Sequence record: ON528721
Strand: one strand, 5' to 3'
Source: Shigella phage ESh8
DNA: 38,701 bases
Shown here: positions 1,756 to 38,701 of the stretch, piece after piece
How positions within the stretch are numbered: position 1 is the first letter of the stretch
Layout of the letters: each line of letters opens with the position of its first letter
Made by a program: the position numbers and the translations under genes
The notes under the pieces: generated by a model
What the model was told of the DNA's origin: nothing
The model's input: only the letters and a program-made list of their open reading frames with translations
Database searches by the model: none

Positions 1756-2208
1756 ATGCTAAAACTTTTACGCAGCGCACTCCCTTGGGTACTCGCCGGG
1801 ACACTCTTTATGGGTGGCTGGCACTTAGGGTCAACCCATGAGAGAGCAAACTGTAAGGAGGTAATCCAAAATGAATACATTGCGAAAACAAAAGCAACCG
1901 CAGCAACTCAGGCAGAGGTCAGTCGGGTATCCCGTGAGTACCAAGAAGAGATTGCAGCCATTGAAGGCAGCACTGATAGGATGCTTAATGACCTGCGTAG
2001 TAATAATAAGCGGCTGTCAGTCCGCATCAAGACCCTTACCGGACTACCAGAAGATAACGGTAGATGCGAGTTTAATGGTCGAGCCGAACTACACGAGTCA
2101 GATGCTAAGCGTATTATCGGAATAACCCAAGCTGCTGATGCTCACGTAAGAGCGCTCCAGCGTACTATTAAGGAGATGCAGAATGAGCGACACCCAAGCA
2201 AACCGTAA
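1756..2208 (+). CDS. 18.5: Rz-like i-spanin (gp18.5); ORF track starts at 1744 but ATG 1756 better placed behind GGGAGG
   Basis: N-terminal TM segment then coiled-coil-like sequence; position before terminase large subunit; contains embedded Rz1-like ORF in +1 frame. Confidence 0.85.
1871..2125 (+). CDS. 18.7: Rz1-like o-spanin lipoprotein (gp18.7) embedded in a different frame within 18.5
   Basis: 84 aa, signal peptide with lipobox-like IISGC, proline-rich mature part, fully nested in Rz ORF as in T7. Confidence 0.8.
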   Translation: MNTLRKQKQPQQLRQRSVGYPVSTKKRLQPLKAALIGCLMTCVVIISGCQSASRPLPDYQKITVDASLMVEPNYTSQMLSVLSE

Positions 2209-3946
2209 TGCGCTAATCATTGCGCAGCTTAAGGGTGACTTCGTGGCCTTCCTGTTCGTATTGTGGAAGGCTTTGGCCCTCCCGCCGCCGACTAAGTGTC
2301 AGATTGATATGGCCCGGTGTCTGGCTAACGGAGACAACAAGAAGTTTATCCTACAGGCTTTCCGTGGTATCGGTAAGTCATTCATCACCTGTGCGTTCGT
2401 TGTGTGGACGTTATGGCGTGACCCTCAGTTGAAGATACTAATTGTCTCTGCATCCAAAGAACGTGCGGACGCTAACTCCATCTTCATCAAGAACATCATT
2501 GACCTGCTGCCCTTCTTGGCTGAGCTAAAGCCTCGCCCCGGTCAGCGTGACTCTGTGATTAGTTTCGATGTTGGCCCTGCCAAGCCTGACCACTCTCCGT
2601 CTGTGAAGTCGGTGGGTATCACTGGTCAGTTGACTGGTAGTCGTGCTGATATCATCATAGCGGATGACGTTGAGATTCCGTCTAACTCCGCAACTCAAGG
2701 TGCCCGTGAGAAGCTGTGGACTCTGGTGCAGGAATTTGCCGCACTGCTGAAACCGCTGCCGACTTCTCGCGTTATCTACCTTGGTACGCCTCAAACCGAA
2801 ATGACCTTGTACAAGGAACTCGAAGATAACCGTGGGTACACCACAATCATCTGGCCTGCGCTCTATCCGCGTAGCCGTGAGGAAGACCTGTACTATGGCG
2901 ACCGTCTGGCCCCGATGCTCCGCGAAGAGTTCAACGATGGGTTCGAGATGCTCCAAGGTCAACCGACTGACCCCGTGCGCTTCGATATGGAAGACCTGCG
3001 TGAGCGTGAGTTGGAATACGGTAAGGCTGGCTTCACTTTGCAGTTCATGCTCAACCCGAACCTGAGTGATGCCGAGAAGTACCCCTTACGCCTCCGTGAC
3101 GCTATCGTGTGCGGTCTGGACTTCGAGAAAGCCCCAATGCATTACCAGTGGCTTCCGAACCGTCAGAATCGCAATGAAGAGCTACCTAACGTGGGCCTTA
3201 AGGGTGATGATATTCATAGCTATCATTCGTGCAGCCAGAACACTGGACAGTACCAGCAGCGCATCATCGTGATCGACCCGAGTGGTCGCGGTAAGGATGA
3301 GACTGGTTACGCAGTGTTATTCACCCTGAATGGCTACATCTATCTGATGGAAGCTGGCGGGTTCCGCGATGGTTATTCCGATAAGACCCTTGAGTCCCTC
3401 GCTAAGAAAGCGAAGCAGTGGAAGGTTCAGACAGTGGTCTTCGAGAGTAACTTCGGGGATGGTATGTTTGGTAAGGTATTCAGCCCTGTGCTCCTGAAAC
3501 ACCATGCAGCCTCTATGGAAGAGATTCGTGCTCGTGGTATGAAGGAACTACGCATTTGTGATACGCTGGAGCCTGTACTCTCTACGCACCGCCTTGTGAT
3601 TCGTGACGAGGTGATTCGTGAGGACTACCAGACTGCCCGTGACGCTGATGGCAAGCATGATGTTCGCTATTCGCTGTTCTACCAGTTGACCCGTATGGCT
3701 CGTGAGAAGGGCGCTGTGGCCCACGATGACCGACTTGATGCACTAGCATTGGGTGTGGAGTTCTTACGCTCTACGATGGAACTGGACGCCGTGAAGGTGG
3801 AGGCTGAGGTGCTTGAGGCGTTCTTAGAGGAACACATGGAGCACCCAATCCATTCGGCTGGTCACGTAGTTACCGCTATGGTTGACGGGATGGAACTCTA
3901 TTGGGAGGATGACGATGCGAATAGCAACAGGTTCATTGACTGGTAG
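2183..3946 (+). CDS. 19: Terminase large subunit / DNA maturation protein B (gp19), 587 aa
   Basis: 587 aa (T7 gp19 586 aa); Walker A-like GIGKS; start overlaps 18.5 end. Confidence 0.95.
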
Positions 3947-4026: not shown

Positions 4027-4049
4027 AATTAACCCTCACTAAAGGGAGA
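4027..4049 (+). promoter_or_regulatory. T3-type phage RNAP promoter (phiOR-like), AATTAACCCTCACTAAAGGGAGA
   Basis: Exact match to T3 promoter consensus; located after gene 19 before 19.5 as phiOR in T7. Confidence 0.9.
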
Positions 4050-11305: not shown

Positions 11306-11580
11306 TGATGGGACGTATCTATAGCGGCAACCTGAACGATTACAAAGATGCGGTAGCGCGTCTACAGGAAGACCATGACGTGACCGTGAAGGTGGAGTCA
11401 TTCAGTTATGAAAACCCAGCGAAGATGTGCAGGTCATCCGGTGAGGTTCTCCGTGTGTTCACACGCTCCGGGCATCTGGTGGCATCCAGAACCTTCGAGC
11501 ACAGCGACAGTGATGTACAAATCAACGCGCAGACTGCATGGCTCCGCAAGGTTCACAGCGATTTGAAACACTGGAAGTAA
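11305..11580 (+). CDS. 1.2: gp1.2-like protein (inhibitor of host dGTPase in T7), 91 aa
   Basis: MMGRIYSGNL... and C-terminal ...DLKHWK match T7 gp1.2 (MGRLYSGNL...QLKDWK); ORF-track GTG start at 11296 rejected. Confidence 0.8.
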   Translation: MMGRIYSGNLNDYKDAVARLQEDHDVTVKVESFSYENPAKMCRSSGEVLRVFTRSGHLVASRTFEHSDSDVQINAQTAWLRKVHSDLKHWK

Positions 11581-11600
11581 TAACCCTCACTAACAGGAGA
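11578..11600 (+). promoter_or_regulatory. T3-type phage RNAP promoter, TAATAACCCTCACTAACAGGAGA
   Basis: Consensus core. Confidence 0.85.
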
Positions 11601-11637
11601 ATCCTCAAGGTCACTTTAGCGAGTGGCCTTTGTGATT
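11601..11637 (+). promoter_or_regulatory. RNase III-type hairpin (R1.3-like)
   Basis: CCTCAAGGTCACTTTAGCGAGTGGCCTTTGTGATT. Confidence 0.6.
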
Positions 11638-11674
11638 CGAACTGATTAACTTTCAACCGATGAGGAACAACCTT

Positions 11675-13118: not shown

Positions 13119-13609
13119 TGTTACAACATCATTGGAACAAACCAGACTTAGAAGCCCGCTTCCCGGTTAACTCTGTTGTGCGATACTCCGGCGGTGGCCT
13201 CAAGCGTATCTTAGGGATGAGCGGAGTGGTCACTGGTCACTCGCACACAGGTCGCGTTAAGGTTCGCTTCGGTACTCAGCACGCTGAGGTTCTTCCTGAC
13301 AACCTGATTCCGCTGCCTAAAGCTGACGTTAAGACTCCGAACGTGGAAGCACCGAAGGCAGAAGTCAAGTCTGACGTGACACACCCGAACCACTACATGC
13401 TGTTCGACAACGTGGAAGCCATTGAGGTTATCGCCCGGTCAATGACCGTCGAGGCGTTCCGTGGGTACTGCCTTGGGAATATTTTGAAGTACCGCCTGCG
13501 TGCTGGCAAGAAATCCGAACTGGCAACGATGGAGAAAGACCTTAAGAAAGCGGCTTTCTATCAGGAACTGTTTGACAAACACCGGGGGCTGTGTTATGAC
13601 GCTTCGTGA
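13118..13609 (+). CDS. 1.7: gp1.7-like protein (nucleotide kinase in T7), 163 aa
   Basis: C-terminal region [43 protein letters not shown] resembles T7 gp1.7. Confidence 0.7.
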
Positions 13610-13742
13610 ATGCTGCGATTGGTGTGCCGCTAAGTGGAACCAAGCTATTGAGGATGGTGACAAGGCGGCTGCTGACGCTTACAAACAACTGTACGCGCTG
13701 TGGGAGCGGCGCTTTAAGGAGGCTCAAAGTGGAGCAACGTGA
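13596..13742 (+). CDS. 1.8: gp1.8-like protein, 48 aa
   Basis: 48 aa as T7 gp1.8; start overlaps end of 1.7. Confidence 0.6.
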
Positions 13743-13893
13743 ACAGAAATACCTTCTGACGATAGAAGGAAACACCGAGTCCTTTGAGGTTCCGGTATTC
13801 GCCCGGTCTCTCGAAGAGGCAACGCTACAGGCTGAACATTATGAGGACGCTGGGTTCGTAGTGACTCGTATCCGTCCAGAAGTGAAAGCCTAA
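13729..13893 (+). CDS. 2: Host RNA polymerase inhibitor gp2, 54 aa, GTG start
   Basis: AGGAGG 7 nt upstream of GTG 13729; ...[38 protein letters not shown] aligns with T7 gp2 ...[34 protein letters not shown]. Confidence 0.75.
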
Positions 13894-13913
13894 TTACCCT
13901 CACTAAAGGGAAC
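13891..13913 (+). promoter_or_regulatory. Variant phage RNAP promoter upstream of SSB gene, TAATTACCCTCACTAAAGGGAAC
   Basis: Core CCCTCACTAAAGGGA; same upstream variant as the phiOL-like site. Confidence 0.75.
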
Positions 13914-13945: not shown

Positions 13946-14644
13946 ATGGCTGGTTTCAAGAAGAAAATCTACACATCTGGTCTTGGCACTGCTGAGCCTT
14001 ATGCTTACCTGAGTAAGCCGGATTATGGCAACGAAGAGCGTGGCTTCGGCAACCCTCGTGGTATCTATAAGGTAGACCTGACTCTTTCCAATAAAGACCC
14101 GCGCTGTCAGGCAATGGTCGATGAAATCGTGAAGACTCACGAAGAGGCTTATGCTGCTGCCGTGGAAGAGTTCGAGGCTAACCCGCCGCAGGCACAGCGT
14201 GGTAAGAAACCGCTGAAACCTTACGAGGGCGACATGCCGTTCTTCGATAACGGTGACGGTACGACTACCTTCAAGTTCAAATGCTATGCGTCTTTCCAAG
14301 ACAAGAAGACCAAAGAGACCAAACACATCAATCTGGTAGTGGTCGATAGCAAAGGTAAGAAGATTCAGGACGTTCCGATTATCGGTGGTGGCTCTAAGCT
14401 GAAAGTGAAATACTCTCTGGTGCCTTACAAATGGAACACAGCTGTGGGCGCAAGCGTCAAGCTACAACTGGAGTCCGTGATGCTGGTCGAACTGGCTACC
14501 TTCGGTGGTGGCGGTGAAGATGAGTGGGCCGATGAAGTCGAAGACGGTGGTTACACTGCGAGTGAATCCCGTCAGTCCCGCGATGAGCAGGAGTGGCAGG
14601 AAGACGAGCACGAAGAAACCCCGGATGAGGATGAGGATTTTTAA
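13946..14644 (+). CDS. 2.5: Single-stranded DNA-binding protein gp2.5, 232 aa
   Basis: 232 aa as T7 gp2.5; highly acidic C-terminal tail ending in F. Confidence 0.95.
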   Translation: MAGFKKKIYTSGLGTAEPYAYLSKPDYGNEERGFGNPRGIYKVDLTLSNKDPRCQAMVDEIVKTHEEAYAAAVEEFEANPPQAQRGKKPLKPYEGDMPFFDNGDGTTTFKFKCYASFQDKKTKETKHINLVVVDSKGKKIQDVPIIGGGSKLKVKYSLVPYKWNTAVGASVKLQLESVMLVELATFGGGGEDEWADEVEDGGYTASESRQSRDEQEWQEDEHEETPDEDEDF

Positions 14645-14647
14645 ACC

Positions 14648-15118
14648 ATGAACCTGCGGGAGAAACTGGAGGCTTACTCTAAAGTGTCTCCCTCTGGTTG
14701 CTGGGAGTGGCAGCGAGCCACTGCTGGGAAGGGTTATGGTTTAATATCCATAGGTCGCCAGCGTCAAGCATATGCGCACAGGGTGTCATACTTCATCTTC
14801 AACGGGCCAATTTCCGAAGGTCTTGTAGTCAGACATAAGTGTGATAACCCTTGCTGCGTTAACCCTGAGCACCTAGAAGTTGGGACTCAGGAAGACAACA
14901 TGCAGGACTGTAAGAAGCGTGGTCGTCTATCCGCGCCACCAGTAGCGAGAGGTGTACACAATCACAAGACCAAGCTGACCGATGAACAGGTGGCCTACAT
15001 TGTGAACTCCAAGAAGAGTAGCCGCGAGTTAGCCAACGAGTTTGGAGTCTCGCCGCAGGCTATAAACTGGAGGAAGAAACAATGGCAGGCTACGGCGCAA
15101 AAGGAATCCGAAAAGTAG
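14648..15118 (+). CDS. HNH-family endonuclease with C-terminal helix-turn-helix-like DNA-binding tail (putative free-standing homing endonuclease), 156 aa
   Basis: Motifs AHRVSYFIFNG...VVRHKCDNPCCVNPEHLEVGTQEDN (His-Asn-His core, Cys ligands); C-terminal LTDEQVAYIVNS..SSRELANEFGVSPQAINWRKK; overlaps start of endonuclease I gene by 37 nt. Confidence 0.8.
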   Translation: MNLREKLEAYSKVSPSGCWEWQRATAGKGYGLISIGRQRQAYAHRVSYFIFNGPISEGLVVRHKCDNPCCVNPEHLEVGTQEDNMQDCKKRGRLSAPPVARGVHNHKTKLTDEQVAYIVNSKKSSRELANEFGVSPQAINWRKKQWQATAQKESEK

Positions 15119-15531
15119 GTTCCTTCCGTTCTGGACTTGAAGATAAAGTCCACAAACAACTGGAGGCTCGTGGGGTAAAGGCTGAATATGAAATGTGGAA
15201 GATTCCATATGTTGTACCAGCCAGTAATCACACGTACCGACCAGATTTTATTTTACCCAATGGAATCATTGTCGAGACCAAGGGACTGTGGGAAGCTGAT
15301 GACCGGAAGAAGCACTTGCTAATCCGTGAGCAGTATCCTGAACTGGACATTCGTCTGGTGTTCTCTTCGAGTCGTACCAAAATATACAAAGGGTCTCCAA
15401 CTTCTTACGCCGAGTTCTGCGAGAAGAAAGGGATTCTCTTTGCCGACAAACTGATACCCGTCGAGTGGCTCAAGGAGCCTAAGCGGGACGTACCGTGGGA
15501 GAAACTAATTCGTGTAAAGGAGAAAAAGTAA
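15082..15531 (+). CDS. 3: Endonuclease I (Holliday junction resolvase) gp3, 149 aa
   Basis: 149 aa as T7 gp3; position; RBS GGAGGA. Confidence 0.9.
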   Translation: MAGYGAKGIRKVGSFRSGLEDKVHKQLEARGVKAEYEMWKIPYVVPASNHTYRPDFILPNGIIVETKGLWEADDRKKHLLIREQYPELDIRLVFSSSRTKIYKGSPTSYAEFCEKKGILFADKLIPVEWLKEPKRDVPWEKLIRVKEKK

Positions 15532-15987
15532 ATGGCTAAAGTTCAATTCAAACCACGAGCAACCACGGAGGCAATCTTTGTGCATTGCTCAGCAACCAAG
15601 CCAAGCCAGAACATTGGCGTTCGTGAGATTCGTCAGTGGCACAAAGAGCAGGGCTGGTTAGACGTAGGATATCACTTCATCATCAAGCGTGATGGCACTG
15701 TGGAAGCAGGCCGCGATGAACTGGCTGTAGGTTCCCACGTGAAAGGTTACAACCACAACTCCGTAGGCGTATGCCTCGTTGGTGGGATTGATGATAAAGG
15801 CAAGTTCGACGCCAACTTTACACCTGCGCAAATGCAAGCGCTGCGTAGTCTACTGGTCACGCTGCTGGCGAAGTATGAGGGTTCAGTCCTTCGTGCTCAC
15901 CATGACGTTGCACCCAAAGCCTGCCCGTCCTTCGACTTGAAGCGCTGGTGGGAGAAGAACGAACTGGTTACATCTGACCGAGGGTGA
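15532..15987 (+). CDS. 3.5: Lysozyme / N-acetylmuramoyl-L-alanine amidase gp3.5, 151 aa
   Basis: 151 aa; MAKVQFKPRATTEAIFVHCSATKPSQNIGVREIRQWH... matches T7 lysozyme. Confidence 0.95.
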   Translation: MAKVQFKPRATTEAIFVHCSATKPSQNIGVREIRQWHKEQGWLDVGYHFIIKRDGTVEAGRDELAVGSHVKGYNHNSVGVCLVGGIDDKGKFDANFTPAQMQALRSLLVTLLAKYEGSVLRAHHDVAPKACPSFDLKRWWEKNELVTSDRG

Positions 15988-16099: not shown

Positions 16100-17916
<1,817 letters not shown>

Positions 17917-23317: not shown

Positions 23318-24925
23318 ATGGCTGATTCAAAACGTACAGGATTGGGCGAAGACGGTGCTAAAGCTACCTATGACCGCCTGACGAACGACCGTAGAGCCTA
23401 TGAGACTCGTGCGGAAAACTGTGCGCAATACACCATTCCGTCCTTGTTCCCGAAGGAGTCCGATAACGAATCTACCGACTACACGACTCCGTGGCAGGCT
23501 GTAGGTGCGCGGGGTCTTAACAATCTGGCCTCTAAGTTAATGCTTGCGTTATTCCCGATGCAGTCGTGGATGAAGCTGACCATTAGCGAATATGAGGCGA
23601 AGCAGCTTGTTGGAGACCCTGATGGACTCGCTAAGGTGGACGAAGGTCTGTCTATGGTTGAGCGTATTATCATGAATTATATCGAATCCAACAGCTACCG
23701 TGTGACGCTCTTTGAGTGCCTCAAGCAGTTGATCGTGGCAGGTAATGCACTGCTTTACTTACCGGAACCCGAAGGTAGCTACAATCCGATGAAGCTGTAC
23801 CGATTGTCTTCTTATGTTGTCCAAAGAGACGCATACGGCAATGTGTTACAGATTGTCACTCGTGACCAGATAGCCTTTGGTGCTCTCCCGGAAGACGTTC
23901 GGTCTGCGGTAGAGAAAGCTGGTGGTGAGAAGAAGATGGACGAAATGGTCGATGTGTACACCCATGTGTATCTCGATGAAGAGTCCGGCGATTACCTCAA
24001 GTACGAGGAAGTAGAGGACGTTGAGATTGATGGCTCCGATGCCACCTATCCGACTGACGCTATGCCCTACATTCCGGTTCGCATGGTTCGCATTGATGGC
24101 GAGTCTTACGGTCGCTCCTACTGTGAAGAATACTTAGGTGACTTAAGGTCTCTTGAGAATCTCCAAGAGGCTATCGTTAAGATGAGCATGATTAGTGCGA
24201 AGGTCATCGGTCTGGTGAACCCGGCTGGAATCACGCAGCCACGTAGATTAACCAAAGCTCAGACTGGTGACTTCGTTCCCGGTCGTCGAGAAGACATTGA
24301 CTTCCTGCAACTGGAGAAGCAAGCTGACTTTACCGTAGCGAAAGCTGTGAGTGACCAGATAGAAGCACGCTTATCGTATGCCTTTATGTTGAACTCTGCG
24401 GTGCAACGAACAGGTGAACGTGTGACCGCCGAAGAGATTCGATACGTTGCGTCAGAACTGGAAGATACGCTTGGTGGTGTCTATTCGATTCTGTCTCAAG
24501 AACTGCAATTGCCTCTGGTTCGTGTGCTCTTGAAGCAACTCCAAGCAACCTCGCAGATTCCTGAGCTACCGAAAGAAGCCGTTGAGCCGACTATCAGCAC
24601 AGGTCTGGAAGCAATCGGGCGTGGTCAAGACCTCGATAAGCTGGAGCGCTGTATCTCCGCTTGGGCTGCTCTGGCTCCTATGCAGGGAGACCCGGACATT
24701 AACCTTGCTGTCATTAAGCTGCGCATTGCTAACGCCATTGGTATTGATACTTCTGGTATCCTACTGACGGACGAGCAGAAGCAAGCACTGATGATGCAGG
24801 ATGCGGCCCAAACAGGTATCGAGAACGCTGCCGCCACTGGTGGGGCTGGTGTGGGTGCTCTAGCGACCTCAAGTCCAGAAGCTATGCAGGGTGCAGCAGC
24901 ACAGGCTGGCCTAGACGCCACCTAA
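23318..24925 (+). CDS. 8: Portal (head-tail connector) protein gp8, 535 aa
   Basis: 535 aa (T7 gp8 536 aa); position; strong RBS GAGGAGG. Confidence 0.95.
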   Translation: MADSKRTGLGEDGAKATYDRLTNDRRAYETRAENCAQYTIPSLFPKESDNESTDYTTPWQAVGARGLNNLASKLMLALFPMQSWMKLTISEYEAKQLVGDPDGLAKVDEGLSMVERIIMNYIESNSYRVTLFECLKQLIVAGNALLYLPEPEGSYNPMKLYRLSSYVVQRDAYGNVLQIVTRDQIAFGALPEDVRSAVEKAGGEKKMDEMVDVYTHVYLDEESGDYLKYEEVEDVEIDGSDATYPTDAMPYIPVRMVRIDGESYGRSYCEEYLGDLRSLENLQEAIVKMSMISAKVIGLVNPAGITQPRRLTKAQTGDFVPGRREDIDFLQLEKQADFTVAKAVSDQIEARLSYAFMLNSAVQRTGERVTAEEIRYVASELEDTLGGVYSILSQELQLPLVRVLLKQLQATSQIPELPKEAVEPTISTGLEAIGRGQDLDKLERCISAWAALAPMQGDPDINLAVIKLRIANAIGIDTSGILLTDEQKQALMMQDAAQTGIENAAATGGAGVGALATSSPEAMQGAAAQAGLDAT

Positions 24926-37880: not shown

Positions 37881-37933
37881 GAGGTCACATTCTGGCCTCT
37901 TCTCTCTTAATGCTAATTTACAAAGGAGGTCAC

Positions 37934-38701
37934 ATGGCTACAACTATTAAGACCGTGATGACTTACCCGCTGGATGGCTCCACTACGGACTTCAATATTC
38001 CGTTTGAGTATCTGGCTCGTAAGTTCGTCCGAGTGACACTTATCGGCGTTGACCGAAAGGAACTCATCTTGAATCAAGACTATCGTTTTGCGACTAAGAC
38101 CACAATCTCCACAACGAGAGCATTGGGGCCAGCGGACGGTTATACTTTGATTGAAATCCGTCGATTCACCTCCGCTACAGACCGTCTGGTTGACTTTACC
38201 GACGGCTCTATCCTGCGGGCATATGATTTGAACATCTCGCAGGTTCAGACACTCCACGTTGCTGAGGAAGCCCGTGACCTTACCACTGATACAATTGGCG
38301 TTAACAATGATGGGAACTTGGATGCTCGTGGTCGTCGTATCGTTAACGTTGCGGATGCGCAAGATGTAGGTGATGCAGTCAACTTAGGCCAAATCCAACG
38401 GTGGAACGACTCTGCGTTGAACTCTGCGAATCGAGCGAAACAGGAAGCTGACCGTGCTACCGCTCGTGCAAACGATGCGAACAACTCTGCGAACGCATCT
38501 GCAAGCTCTGCAAGCTCTTCTGCTGGGTCTGCTGAGTTATCAAAACAGTGGGCCGTTAAGGAAACCGCTGTGGAGCCAAATCTAGAATCATCACGAACCT
38601 ACGCGCTTCACTCCATGTCATACCGGAATGAGGCTAAAGGCTCTGCCGACCGTGCCGCTGTTTCCGAGACCAACGCTAAGGACTCCGAAGTTTCCGCTGC
38701 T
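37934..38701 (+). CDS. 17: Tail fiber protein gp17, N-terminal portion (3' end cut by window end; 256 codons, no stop)
   Basis: MATTIKTVMTYPLDGSTTDFNIPFEYLARKFVRVTLIGVDRKEL... matches T7 gp17 N-terminal tail-attachment domain; RBS AAAGGAGGT. Confidence 0.95.
   Translation, partial: MATTIKTVMTYPLDGSTTDFNIPFEYLARKFVRVTLIGVDRKELILNQDYRFATKTTISTTRALGPADGYTLIEIRRFTSATDRLVDFTDGSILRAYDLNISQVQTLHVAEEARDLTTDTIGVNNDGNLDARGRRIVNVADAQDVGDAVNLGQIQRWNDSALNSANRAKQEADRATARANDANNSANASASSASSSAGSAELSKQWAVKETAVEPNLESSRTYALHSMSYRNEAKGSADRAAVSETNAKDSEVSAA

Follow-up and report, generated by a model that had tools for sequence, protein, structure and literature searches.

Shigella phage ESh8 carries a free-standing HNH endonuclease gene between genes 2.5 and 3, and wherever this gene occurs at that junction in its T3-like relatives it is accompanied by the same divergent allele of gene 3, endonuclease I. 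The gene itself is almost certainly an HNH homing-type endonuclease of the I-HmuI-like HNH_3 family. The best explanation overall, and one that we consider probable, is a free-standing HNH homing-type endonuclease that would be active by intronless homing with co-conversion; this judgment blends near certainty about the identity of the gene with a far more guarded view of its active homing on a T3-type junction or gene 3. The class of gene, its position, and its presence/absence polymorphism are already known, T7 gene 2.8 being a long-known positional homolog, and so the finding mostly confirms existing annotation. Indeed, the gene is annotated in near-identical phages as "HNH homing endonuclease," "putative homing endonuclease," or "Gp2.8/Gp7.7 HNH motif protein." What is added here is modest, namely, the strict linkage between the HNH gene and one gene 3 allele, with its boundaries mapped.

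Locus organization and expression signals

The window is the complete 38,701-nt stretch of Shigella phage ESh8 DNA (ON528721), a circularly permuted T3-like (Teetrevirus) genome most closely related to Shigella phage ESh9 and Klebsiella phage KpnP_VR4605. The features of the locus are as follows.

13893 to 13911, plus strand: T3-type phage RNA polymerase promoter phi2.5, at the position of the annotated phi2.5 of phiYeO3-12 and T3
13946 to 14644, plus strand: gene 2.5 (ssDNA-binding protein; Pfam SBB_T7, E = 5e-87), the left homology arm
14633 to 14637, plus strand: GAGGA Shine-Dalgarno-like motif for the HNH open reading frame (ORF), within the end of gene 2.5 and 10 nt upstream of the ATG, a sub-optimal spacing
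14641 to 15531, plus strand: linkage block, the putative exchanged cassette, containing all 96 fixed differences between carriers and empty-site genomes
14648 to 15118, plus strand: HNH endonuclease gene, "allele A" (ATG start, 156 amino acids), the counterpart of T7 gene 2.8
14771 to 14905, plus strand: HNH_3 catalytic core (residues 42 to 86), including H63, N84, and C65/C70/H75
14969 to 15112, plus strand: C-terminal three-helix (HTH-like), putative DNA-binding tail (residues ~108 to 155), from the AlphaFold model and weak HTH profiles
15069 to 15074, plus strand: GGAGGA Shine-Dalgarno motif for gene 3, within the 3' end of the HNH ORF and 7 nt before the ATG at 15082
15082 to 15531, plus strand: gene 3 (endonuclease I, 149 amino acids; Pfam Phage_endo_I, E = 3e-80), the variant allele tied to the HNH gene
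15532 to 15987, plus strand: gene 3.5 (amidase/lysozyme), the right homology arm, where 98 to 100% identity to empty-site genomes resumes at the first codon
16100 to 16118: T3-type promoter phi3.8, the next after phi2.5, a promoter-consensus match

The original prediction, made from the sequence of the window, had placed a 156-amino-acid ORF at 14648 to 15118, its start 3 nt past the stop codon of gene 2.5 and its 3' end overlapping gene 3 by 37 nt, and all of these values proved exact. The gene 2.5 stop ends at 14644, the 3-nt gap reads ACC, and the overlap begins with the gene 3 start at 15082. Compared with genomes in which the junction is empty, the insert adds 434 nt (a match span of 1,701 versus 1,267 nt). 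The gene is part of the class II, or DNA-metabolism, region. A tblastn search of the window with six HNH seeds from relatives matched only the gene at 14648 to 15118, and no second HNH gene was found. A terminase-associated HNH protein, of the type of the HK97 gp74-like packaging factor, was ruled out because the gene is not adjacent to the terminase or portal genes; homology to annotated relatives places the large terminase ORF at 2183 to 3946 and the portal gene at 23318 to 24925.

Across the window there were 16 matches to the promoter consensus, against 0.02 expected. No T3-type promoter lies between phi2.5 and phi3.8, which places the HNH ORF on one transcript with genes 2.5, 3, and 3.5. 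No sigma-70-like promoter was found inside the block, and no convincing terminator either, the matches being weak and mostly on the noncoding strand. The Shine-Dalgarno motifs of the HNH gene and of gene 3 are both annotated as ribosome binding sites at equivalent positions in phages Poynor and KLB4. A second allele of the HNH gene described below (allele B) and T7 gene 2.8 have their own GAGG/GGGAGG where the window has the gene 3 Shine-Dalgarno motif. We also considered a regulatory RNA hairpin hiding the HNH start and rejected it, the fold not being significant (z = -1.6).

The HNH protein and its known relatives

The 156-amino-acid protein gave a Pfam match to HNH_3 (PF13392) with an E value of 7e-14, spanning profile positions 2 to 46 of 46 and scoring 51.6 bits against a cutoff of 24.8, and it matched PHROG HNH families with E values down to 3e-34. 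The motifs by which the core had been recognized, AHRVSY...RHKCDNPCCVNPEHL...EDN, are present. Of the two families anticipated for the protein, HNH_3 was borne out and AP2-HNH was rejected: the only Pfam matches at an E value of ≤0.1 were HNH_3, a below-threshold match to zf-His_Me_endon, and a below-threshold match to HTH_24 (residues 120 to 142; E = 0.0097), with none to AP2. Searching 5.8 billion proteins yielded 224 homologs at an E value of ≤1e-5; nearly all have PF13392, and several have additional precomputed HTH Pfam domains. Twelve residues are invariant in an alignment of 65 homologs: C18, Y30, R45, H63, C65, C70, N72, P73, H75, L76, N84, and D87. In an alignment with I-HmuI, H63 falls on the histidine of the "VVDHK" motif and N84 on the asparagine downstream, and the two are predicted to act as the general base and a metal ligand, respectively. 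C18, together with C65, C70, and H75, forms what looks like a structural zinc site of the Cys3His type.

A sequence search of the PDB returned marginal matches only (I-HmuI, E = 0.38), and a fold search was thus needed. The AlphaFold2 model (pLDDT, 87.6) has N-terminal strands followed by a beta-beta-alpha core, with strands at residues 60 to 63 and 76 to 79 and then a helix at 81 to 90. A low-confidence linker at residues ~92 to 110 leads to three C-terminal helices (112 to 120, 125 to 132, and 136 to 155) with pLDDT values of about 85 to 91. The best Foldseek match in the PDB was I-HmuI (1U3E), with a probability of 0.99, an E value of 7e-3, and 141 aligned columns; it was followed by I-PpoI and then by assorted HTH repressors. 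TM scores for the top matches to this predicted model were only 0.31 to 0.36, and the modest value for I-HmuI (0.36) arises because the domain orientations differ. The original prediction had read the protein as having the architecture of a phage homing endonuclease, with an HNH core and a helix-turn-helix tail. The overall architecture (an N-terminal beta domain, HNH core, linker, and C-terminal helical tail), for which I-HmuI is the nearest structural match, agrees with that reading, and the core has a clear HNH profile match. The HTH-like tail, putatively DNA binding, is supported less firmly than the core, by the HTH_24 match, by the three modeled helices at residues 112 to 155, and by other weak profile matches (PHROG 323/357, E of ~1e-3; LexA/SpoIIID, E of 0.25 to 0.85).

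I-HmuI, an HNH homing endonuclease from Bacillus phage SPO1, resembles the modeled ESh8 protein in its N-terminal beta region, its HNH beta-beta-alpha-metal core, its helical linker, and its C-terminal HTH. I-HmuI nicks one strand. It is only 23% identical to the ESh8 protein and is intron encoded, whereas the ESh8 gene is free-standing, and it lacks the Cys3His cluster; the ESh8 protein weakly matches an I-PpoI-type zinc-loop profile.

Among phages, T7 gene 2.8 likewise lies between genes 2.5 and 3, and its 3' end overlaps gene 3 and carries the gene 3 ribosome binding site. The T7 protein is homologous to the ESh8 HNH protein over its full length, core and C-terminal tail included, with 40 to 44% amino acid identity over 88% of the query. 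It differs in its length, 139 rather than 156 amino acids, and in its start codon, a GTG that immediately follows the gene 2.5 stop. T7 gene 3 is about 70% identical in nucleotide sequence to both the window-type and the T3-type gene 3. In the part of a preprint available to us, T7 gp2.8 is treated as a homing endonuclease (10.1101/2025.09.07.674715). Much closer are Citrobacter phage SH1 ORF17, Serratia phage 2050H2 gp016, and Klebsiella phage KpnP_VR4605 gp21, which represent the window allele (97 to 99% nucleotide and up to 99.4% amino acid identity), at the same site and with the same linked gene 3 allele. The host backgrounds of allele A vary and include Klebsiella, Serratia, Citrobacter, Pantoea, and Shigella. 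For SH1, the available portion of the genome report identifies ORF17 as a homing endonuclease that is absent from SH2 and phiYeO3-12, and in a table, without comment in that portion, it lists the gene 3 products of SH1 and SH2 as 73% identical (Hamdi et al. 2016, PMC4925675).

Junction occupancy and linkage to gene 3

The state of the junction was read from the best 60 matches in the GenBank phage collection. About 20 records had an occupied junction, 10 with allele A and 10 with allele B, and the other matches among the best 60 were 1,267-nt empty spans. Allele A, at 96.5 to 98.5% nucleotide identity, accounts for 10 records with RefSeq duplicates counted; its carriers are KpnP_VR4605, 2050H2, Poynor, ESh9, KLB4, F5M1C, SH1, and ESh7. 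Allele B is a different, homologous HNH gene of 151 amino acids, 44% identical to allele A in amino acid sequence, and its 10 records comprise Klebsiella phage 31, 536_P3, KP13MC5-2, 10164-302, 10164RH, mtp1, mtp14, F2M1C, and Patroon. At an empty site, gene 2.5 ends and gene 3 begins within a single TAATG, the stop and start codons overlapping. Phages in this state are T3, phiYeO3-12, E-4, SH2, AP5, phiSG-JL2, and all other T3-like phages among the matches listed. The statement in the original prediction that T3 has no such ORF at this locus is thus correct, the TAATG overlap being present in both T3 and phiYeO3-12, and the ORF is far from universal in T3-like genomes, with T3, phiYeO3-12, E-4, SH2, and most others empty. 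T7 gene 2.8 represents a third allele at the same junction (40 to 44% amino acid identity), and two Berlinvirus phages, PP74 (71%) and BP12A, carry an HNH gene at this position as well. Among T7-like phages in IMG/VR, approximately 9 of 115 distinct loci have at the junction an HNH gene that resembles allele A, allele B, or gene 2.8. This patchiness, spanning at least three genera, is what a homing endonuclease gene would be expected to show.

To delimit the region that differs between carriers and empty-site genomes, 5 kb around the locus was aligned for the window and 20 Teetrevirus genomes, giving 14 genomes with the HNH gene and 7 with an empty site. Gene 2.5 is 92 to 100% identical across both classes. 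Gene 3 of the window is 97 to 100% identical to that of the 13 other carriers, whether they have allele A or allele B, whereas against each of the 7 empty-site genomes it is 42 to 76% identical per 100-nt bin. From the very first codon of gene 3.5 (15532), the empty-site genomes are again 98 to 100% identical to the window. The window-type and T3-type gene 3 alleles share, overall, 68% nucleotide and 67 to 74% amino acid identity, and synonymous sites between them are saturated; by comparison, dS between the window and phiYeO3-12 is 0.12 for gene 2.5 and 0.02 for gene 3.5. In population statistics from this small sample of 21 genomes, all 96 of 96 fixed differences between carriers and empty-site genomes fall within 14641 to 15529, and divergence between the classes stands at 0.312 for gene 3, compared with 0.036 for gene 2.5 and 0.061 for gene 3.5, the latter two not exceeding within-class diversity. 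Since every fixed difference lies inside the block, the mobile unit would consist of the HNH gene plus the whole of gene 3. By this comparison, the exchanged unit is bounded by the last gene 2.5 codons and the gene 3 stop.

The same association held in a wider census. A megablast search of 50,697 phage records for the variant gene 3 (at least 92% identity) recovered exactly the 20 records with HNH allele A or B and no others; no case of the variant gene 3 without the HNH gene was encountered in those records. The exact variant gene 3 allele is absent from IMG/VR (best match, 87% amino acid identity), and the census of strict linkage accordingly covers the GenBank phage collection only. These results modify one part of the original prediction, which had envisaged an insertion between genes 2.5 and 3 whose boundaries could be defined by alignment with relatives lacking it. 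The presence/absence polymorphism is real. The boundaries are not those of a simple, clean insertion, because the HNH gene is always linked to a replaced gene 3 that is 31% diverged, and the unit exchanged is 14641 to 15531.

Two further candidate signals were discarded. The gp3 N terminus reads MAGYGAKG (GYGAKG) in HNH carriers versus GAYAARG in empty-site genomes, a difference that separates the classes only within Teetrevirus. MAGYGAKG is common outside Teetrevirus in genomes without the HNH gene, so the motif alone is no mark of immunity, and GYGAKG as a general mark of immunity was rejected on the basis of 51 distinct IMG/VR loci that have it without an HNH gene. An apparent second linked block ~2.7 kb downstream (the 17750 bin) was an alignment-end artifact, blastn giving 93 to 98% identity for all classes. 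Separately, the alignment contains other mosaic blocks with 42 to 65% identity (13150 to 13350, 13650 to 13750, and 16150 to 16350), which occur regardless of HNH status.

The block also differs from its flanks in diversity and divergence. The HNH ORF is intact in 14 of 14 carriers examined, and comparison with the 81%-identical homolog of Klebsiella phage 5OI88 gave a dN/dS ratio of 0.12 at a dS of 0.55, indicating purifying selection; the gene 3 allele is more constrained, with a ratio of 0.04. Within class A, diversity is 0.019 in the HNH gene and 0.011 in gene 3, and it is higher in the flanks (0.034 and 0.079). Between the window and 5OI88, the HNH protein and gp3 show 86% and 93% amino acid identity, compared with 67% for the flanking gp2.5 and 73% for gp3.5, and dS is 0.5 to 0.9 in the block versus about 2 in gene 3.5. 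The low diversity of the block in class A and the contrast with 5OI88 point to recent spread and lateral transfer. Judged by these sequence comparisons, the block has moved laterally between distinct phage lineages.

Homing, alternative explanations, and consequences

Characterized free-standing endonucleases of phage T4 offer a functional model. SegF, SegG, and MobE cut outside their own genes in genomes that lack them, and repair co-converts flanking sequence, leading to localized marker exclusion (PMC2988022; PMC2790892). Like the ESh8 gene, they are free-standing genes between essential genes, patchily distributed in close relatives and with co-inherited flanks (PMC2988022; PMC2790892). 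MobE, like the ESh8 protein, combines an HNH domain with a C-terminal DNA-binding region, putative in the ESh8 case, while the Seg proteins are GIY-YIG enzymes, unlike the ESh8 HNH protein. Where the T4 enzymes cleave and how they bias inheritance has been measured, whereas for the ESh8 enzyme cleavage, target location, and inheritance bias are what we infer from comparative genomics only. The literature searched reports no activity or target for T7 gp2.8 or for the ESh8 protein.

By analogy, in a mixed infection the ESh8 enzyme would nick or cut an HNH-less T3-like rival either at the junction of genes 2.5 and 3, or close to it, or within its T3-type gene 3, and the phage recombination machinery (gp2.5, gp6, and gp3) would mend the break from the HNH-carrying genome. 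Crossovers would resolve only in stretches of high homology, that is, in genes 2.5 and 3.5, and with crossovers so confined, repair would transfer the HNH gene along with the entire divergent gene 3. Such an outcome would amount to marker exclusion or to intronless homing with co-conversion. Protection of the carrier from its own enzyme might come from its divergent gene 3, from the split junction, or from the two together, and the presence of the same gene 3 allele in A and B carriers would fit a common target in the T3-type allele. We put the chance that the gene is an active homing element aimed at the T3-type junction or gene 3 slightly above even. An extended version of this proposal is possible, and we offer it tentatively. 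It holds that the HNH gene and the divergent gene 3 make up a co-adapted two-gene drive cassette, in which nuclease alleles A and B, and perhaps T7 gp2.8, would cut the T3-type gene 3 while the linked gene 3 supplied immunity; such a cassette would sweep an essential recombination/DNA-breakdown gene across T7-like species and genera and may, in addition, confer a catalysis-independent anti-defense benefit.

Other explanations for the locus were weighed against homing. That 14648 to 15118 is a chance ORF or a miscalled overlap without a product might be suggested by its tight packing and the sub-optimal spacing of its Shine-Dalgarno motif, but the significant family matches, the 224 homologs, the confident fold prediction, and the purifying selection refute this, leaving it a negligible probability. 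The linkage pattern could also come from passive linkage. Here, the HNH gene would be a passenger, inactive or irrelevant to spread, on a divergent gene 3 module moved by ordinary homologous recombination. The gene 3 alleles are too diverged (68% nucleotide identity) to recombine with each other, so any exchange, driven by a nuclease or not, would carry both genes, and the linkage is expected from missing homology alone. Consistent with this, nearby mosaic blocks of T3-like genomes have no endonuclease gene close by, and the gene 3 allele is more constrained than the HNH gene (dN/dS of 0.04 versus 0.12). However, a passenger with no role in its own spread does not readily account for an ORF that is intact in all 14 carriers, has a dN/dS of 0.12 over a dS of 0.55, and retains invariant active-site residues. 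Nor does it account for three diverged alleles (A, B, and T7 2.8) persisting at one junction across three genera, or for a variant gene 3 that is always accompanied by the HNH gene in 50,697 records. We regard the passive explanation as quite improbable.

The protein might instead be kept mainly for a benefit to the phage, for example in anti-defense, where DNA binding without catalysis would blunt a break-sensing host defense. A 2025 preprint, in the part available to us, reports that phage HNH homing endonucleases weaken GAPS4 defense even when catalytically dead and that T7 without genes 2.8, 3.8, and 7.7 loses to the wild type only in GAPS4+ cells (10.1101/2025.09.07.674715). Strong purifying selection on the whole HNH protein (dN/dS of 0.12) is compatible with a benefit at this level. 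In that same part of the preprint, however, the GAPS4 effect is given individually for bas24_0090 and T7 gp3.8, and for T7 as the triple deletion only, with no effect specific to gp2.8 (10.1101/2025.09.07.674715). Moreover, the catalytic residues are invariant in 65 homologs, which a pure DNA-binding role would not require, and the patchy distribution and cassette-like linkage are the signature of a selfish element. As the main reason for retention of the gene, anti-defense seems unlikely to us, but anti-defense and homing roles are not mutually exclusive.

The preferred explanation, homing with co-conversion, is directly testable in the phages SH1 and SH2, which have a host in common but are in different states at the 2.5/3 junction. 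An active nuclease would bias which version of the 2.5-3-3.5 region is inherited in mixed T3-like infections. T3-like phages are widely used in therapy cocktails against Klebsiella, Serratia, Citrobacter, and Enterobacter, and an active HNH gene could thus affect cocktail stability and the formation of recombinants. Activity would also explain the existence of two deeply diverged endonuclease I alleles in a group of phages that are otherwise 95 to 99% identical.

Layout of the genome

The window is the whole genome, circularly permuted. Its ends cut the tail-fiber gene in two, and the late genes (holin, 18, 18.5, and 19) are placed ahead of the early region, while the presumed physical genome ends are flanked by T3-type promoters at 4029 and 4979.

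1-1182 and about 37900-38701, tail-fiber gene (gene 17)

Probable recombination at gene 3 and mosaic blocks elsewhere

In the genomes with allele B, the second HNH gene found at the 2.5/3 junction, the point at which gene 3 (endonuclease I) becomes identical to that of the window varies within 15082-15200 (compared loci L002, L017, and L018).

about 15097, switch to the window type in KP13MC5-2 and 10164-302
about 15175, switch to the window type in Klebsiella phage 31
about 15195, switch to the window type in Patroon and F2M1C

These differing switch points suggest that cassettes of the A type (that of the window) and the B type have recombined repeatedly within the 5' end of gene 3. At the same end, the N terminus of gp3 reads MAGAYAARCTQGRAFRSG in the T3 RefSeq record versus MAGAYAARGVRKVGAFRSG in phiYeO3-12 and E-4, and the T3 gene (L005, 2587-2640) differs from these by two gaps, of 2 nt and 1 nt, with a few codons between them. 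Either T3 has a short, compensated frameshift here or its old record contains a sequencing error. At the 3' end, the terminal A-run (window about 15519-15524) carries one additional A in two relatives.

L007 15313-15771, gene 3 with the extra A, ESh9
L011 4183-4641, gene 3 with the extra A, Poynor

The resulting frameshift gives gp3 proteins that end in ...KKVNG or ...KKING, with an overlap with gene 3.5. This ending is similar to the T3-type C terminus (...KKNG) and sits on the backbone of the variant, HNH-linked allele.

Gene 1.7, genes 1.8/2, and gene 4 (in its 5' part) also contain sharp mosaic blocks.

13150-13350, mosaic block
13650-13750, mosaic block
16150-16350, mosaic block

Their identity is 47 to 70% to some relatives and 93 to 100% to others. 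Their assortment is independent of HNH status, and no endonuclease gene adjoins them within the window.

Endonuclease genes of relatives

In a distant group of T7-like IMG/VR contigs (L166-L183), whose gp2.5 is about 28% identical, the 2.5/3 gap holds a conserved but unrelated 152-aa ORF that has no HNH similarity. Relatives carry, between genes 1.2 and 1.3, a paralogous HNH+HTH endonuclease with 34 to 36% amino acid identity to the window protein (equivalent window position, about 11580-11660), and in some the interval from gene 1.3 to gene 1.6 holds a small HNH gene.

L011 302-718, HNH+HTH endonuclease, Poynor
L018 27-443, HNH+HTH endonuclease, Patroon
L006 11755-12171, HNH+HTH endonuclease, E-4
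L018 1560-1859, small HNH gene, Patroon
L015 1568-1813, small HNH gene, ESh7

A tblastn search seeded with the HNH proteins of relatives found neither gene in the window. Thus, the subset of homing-endonuclease genes differs from one T3-like genome to another.
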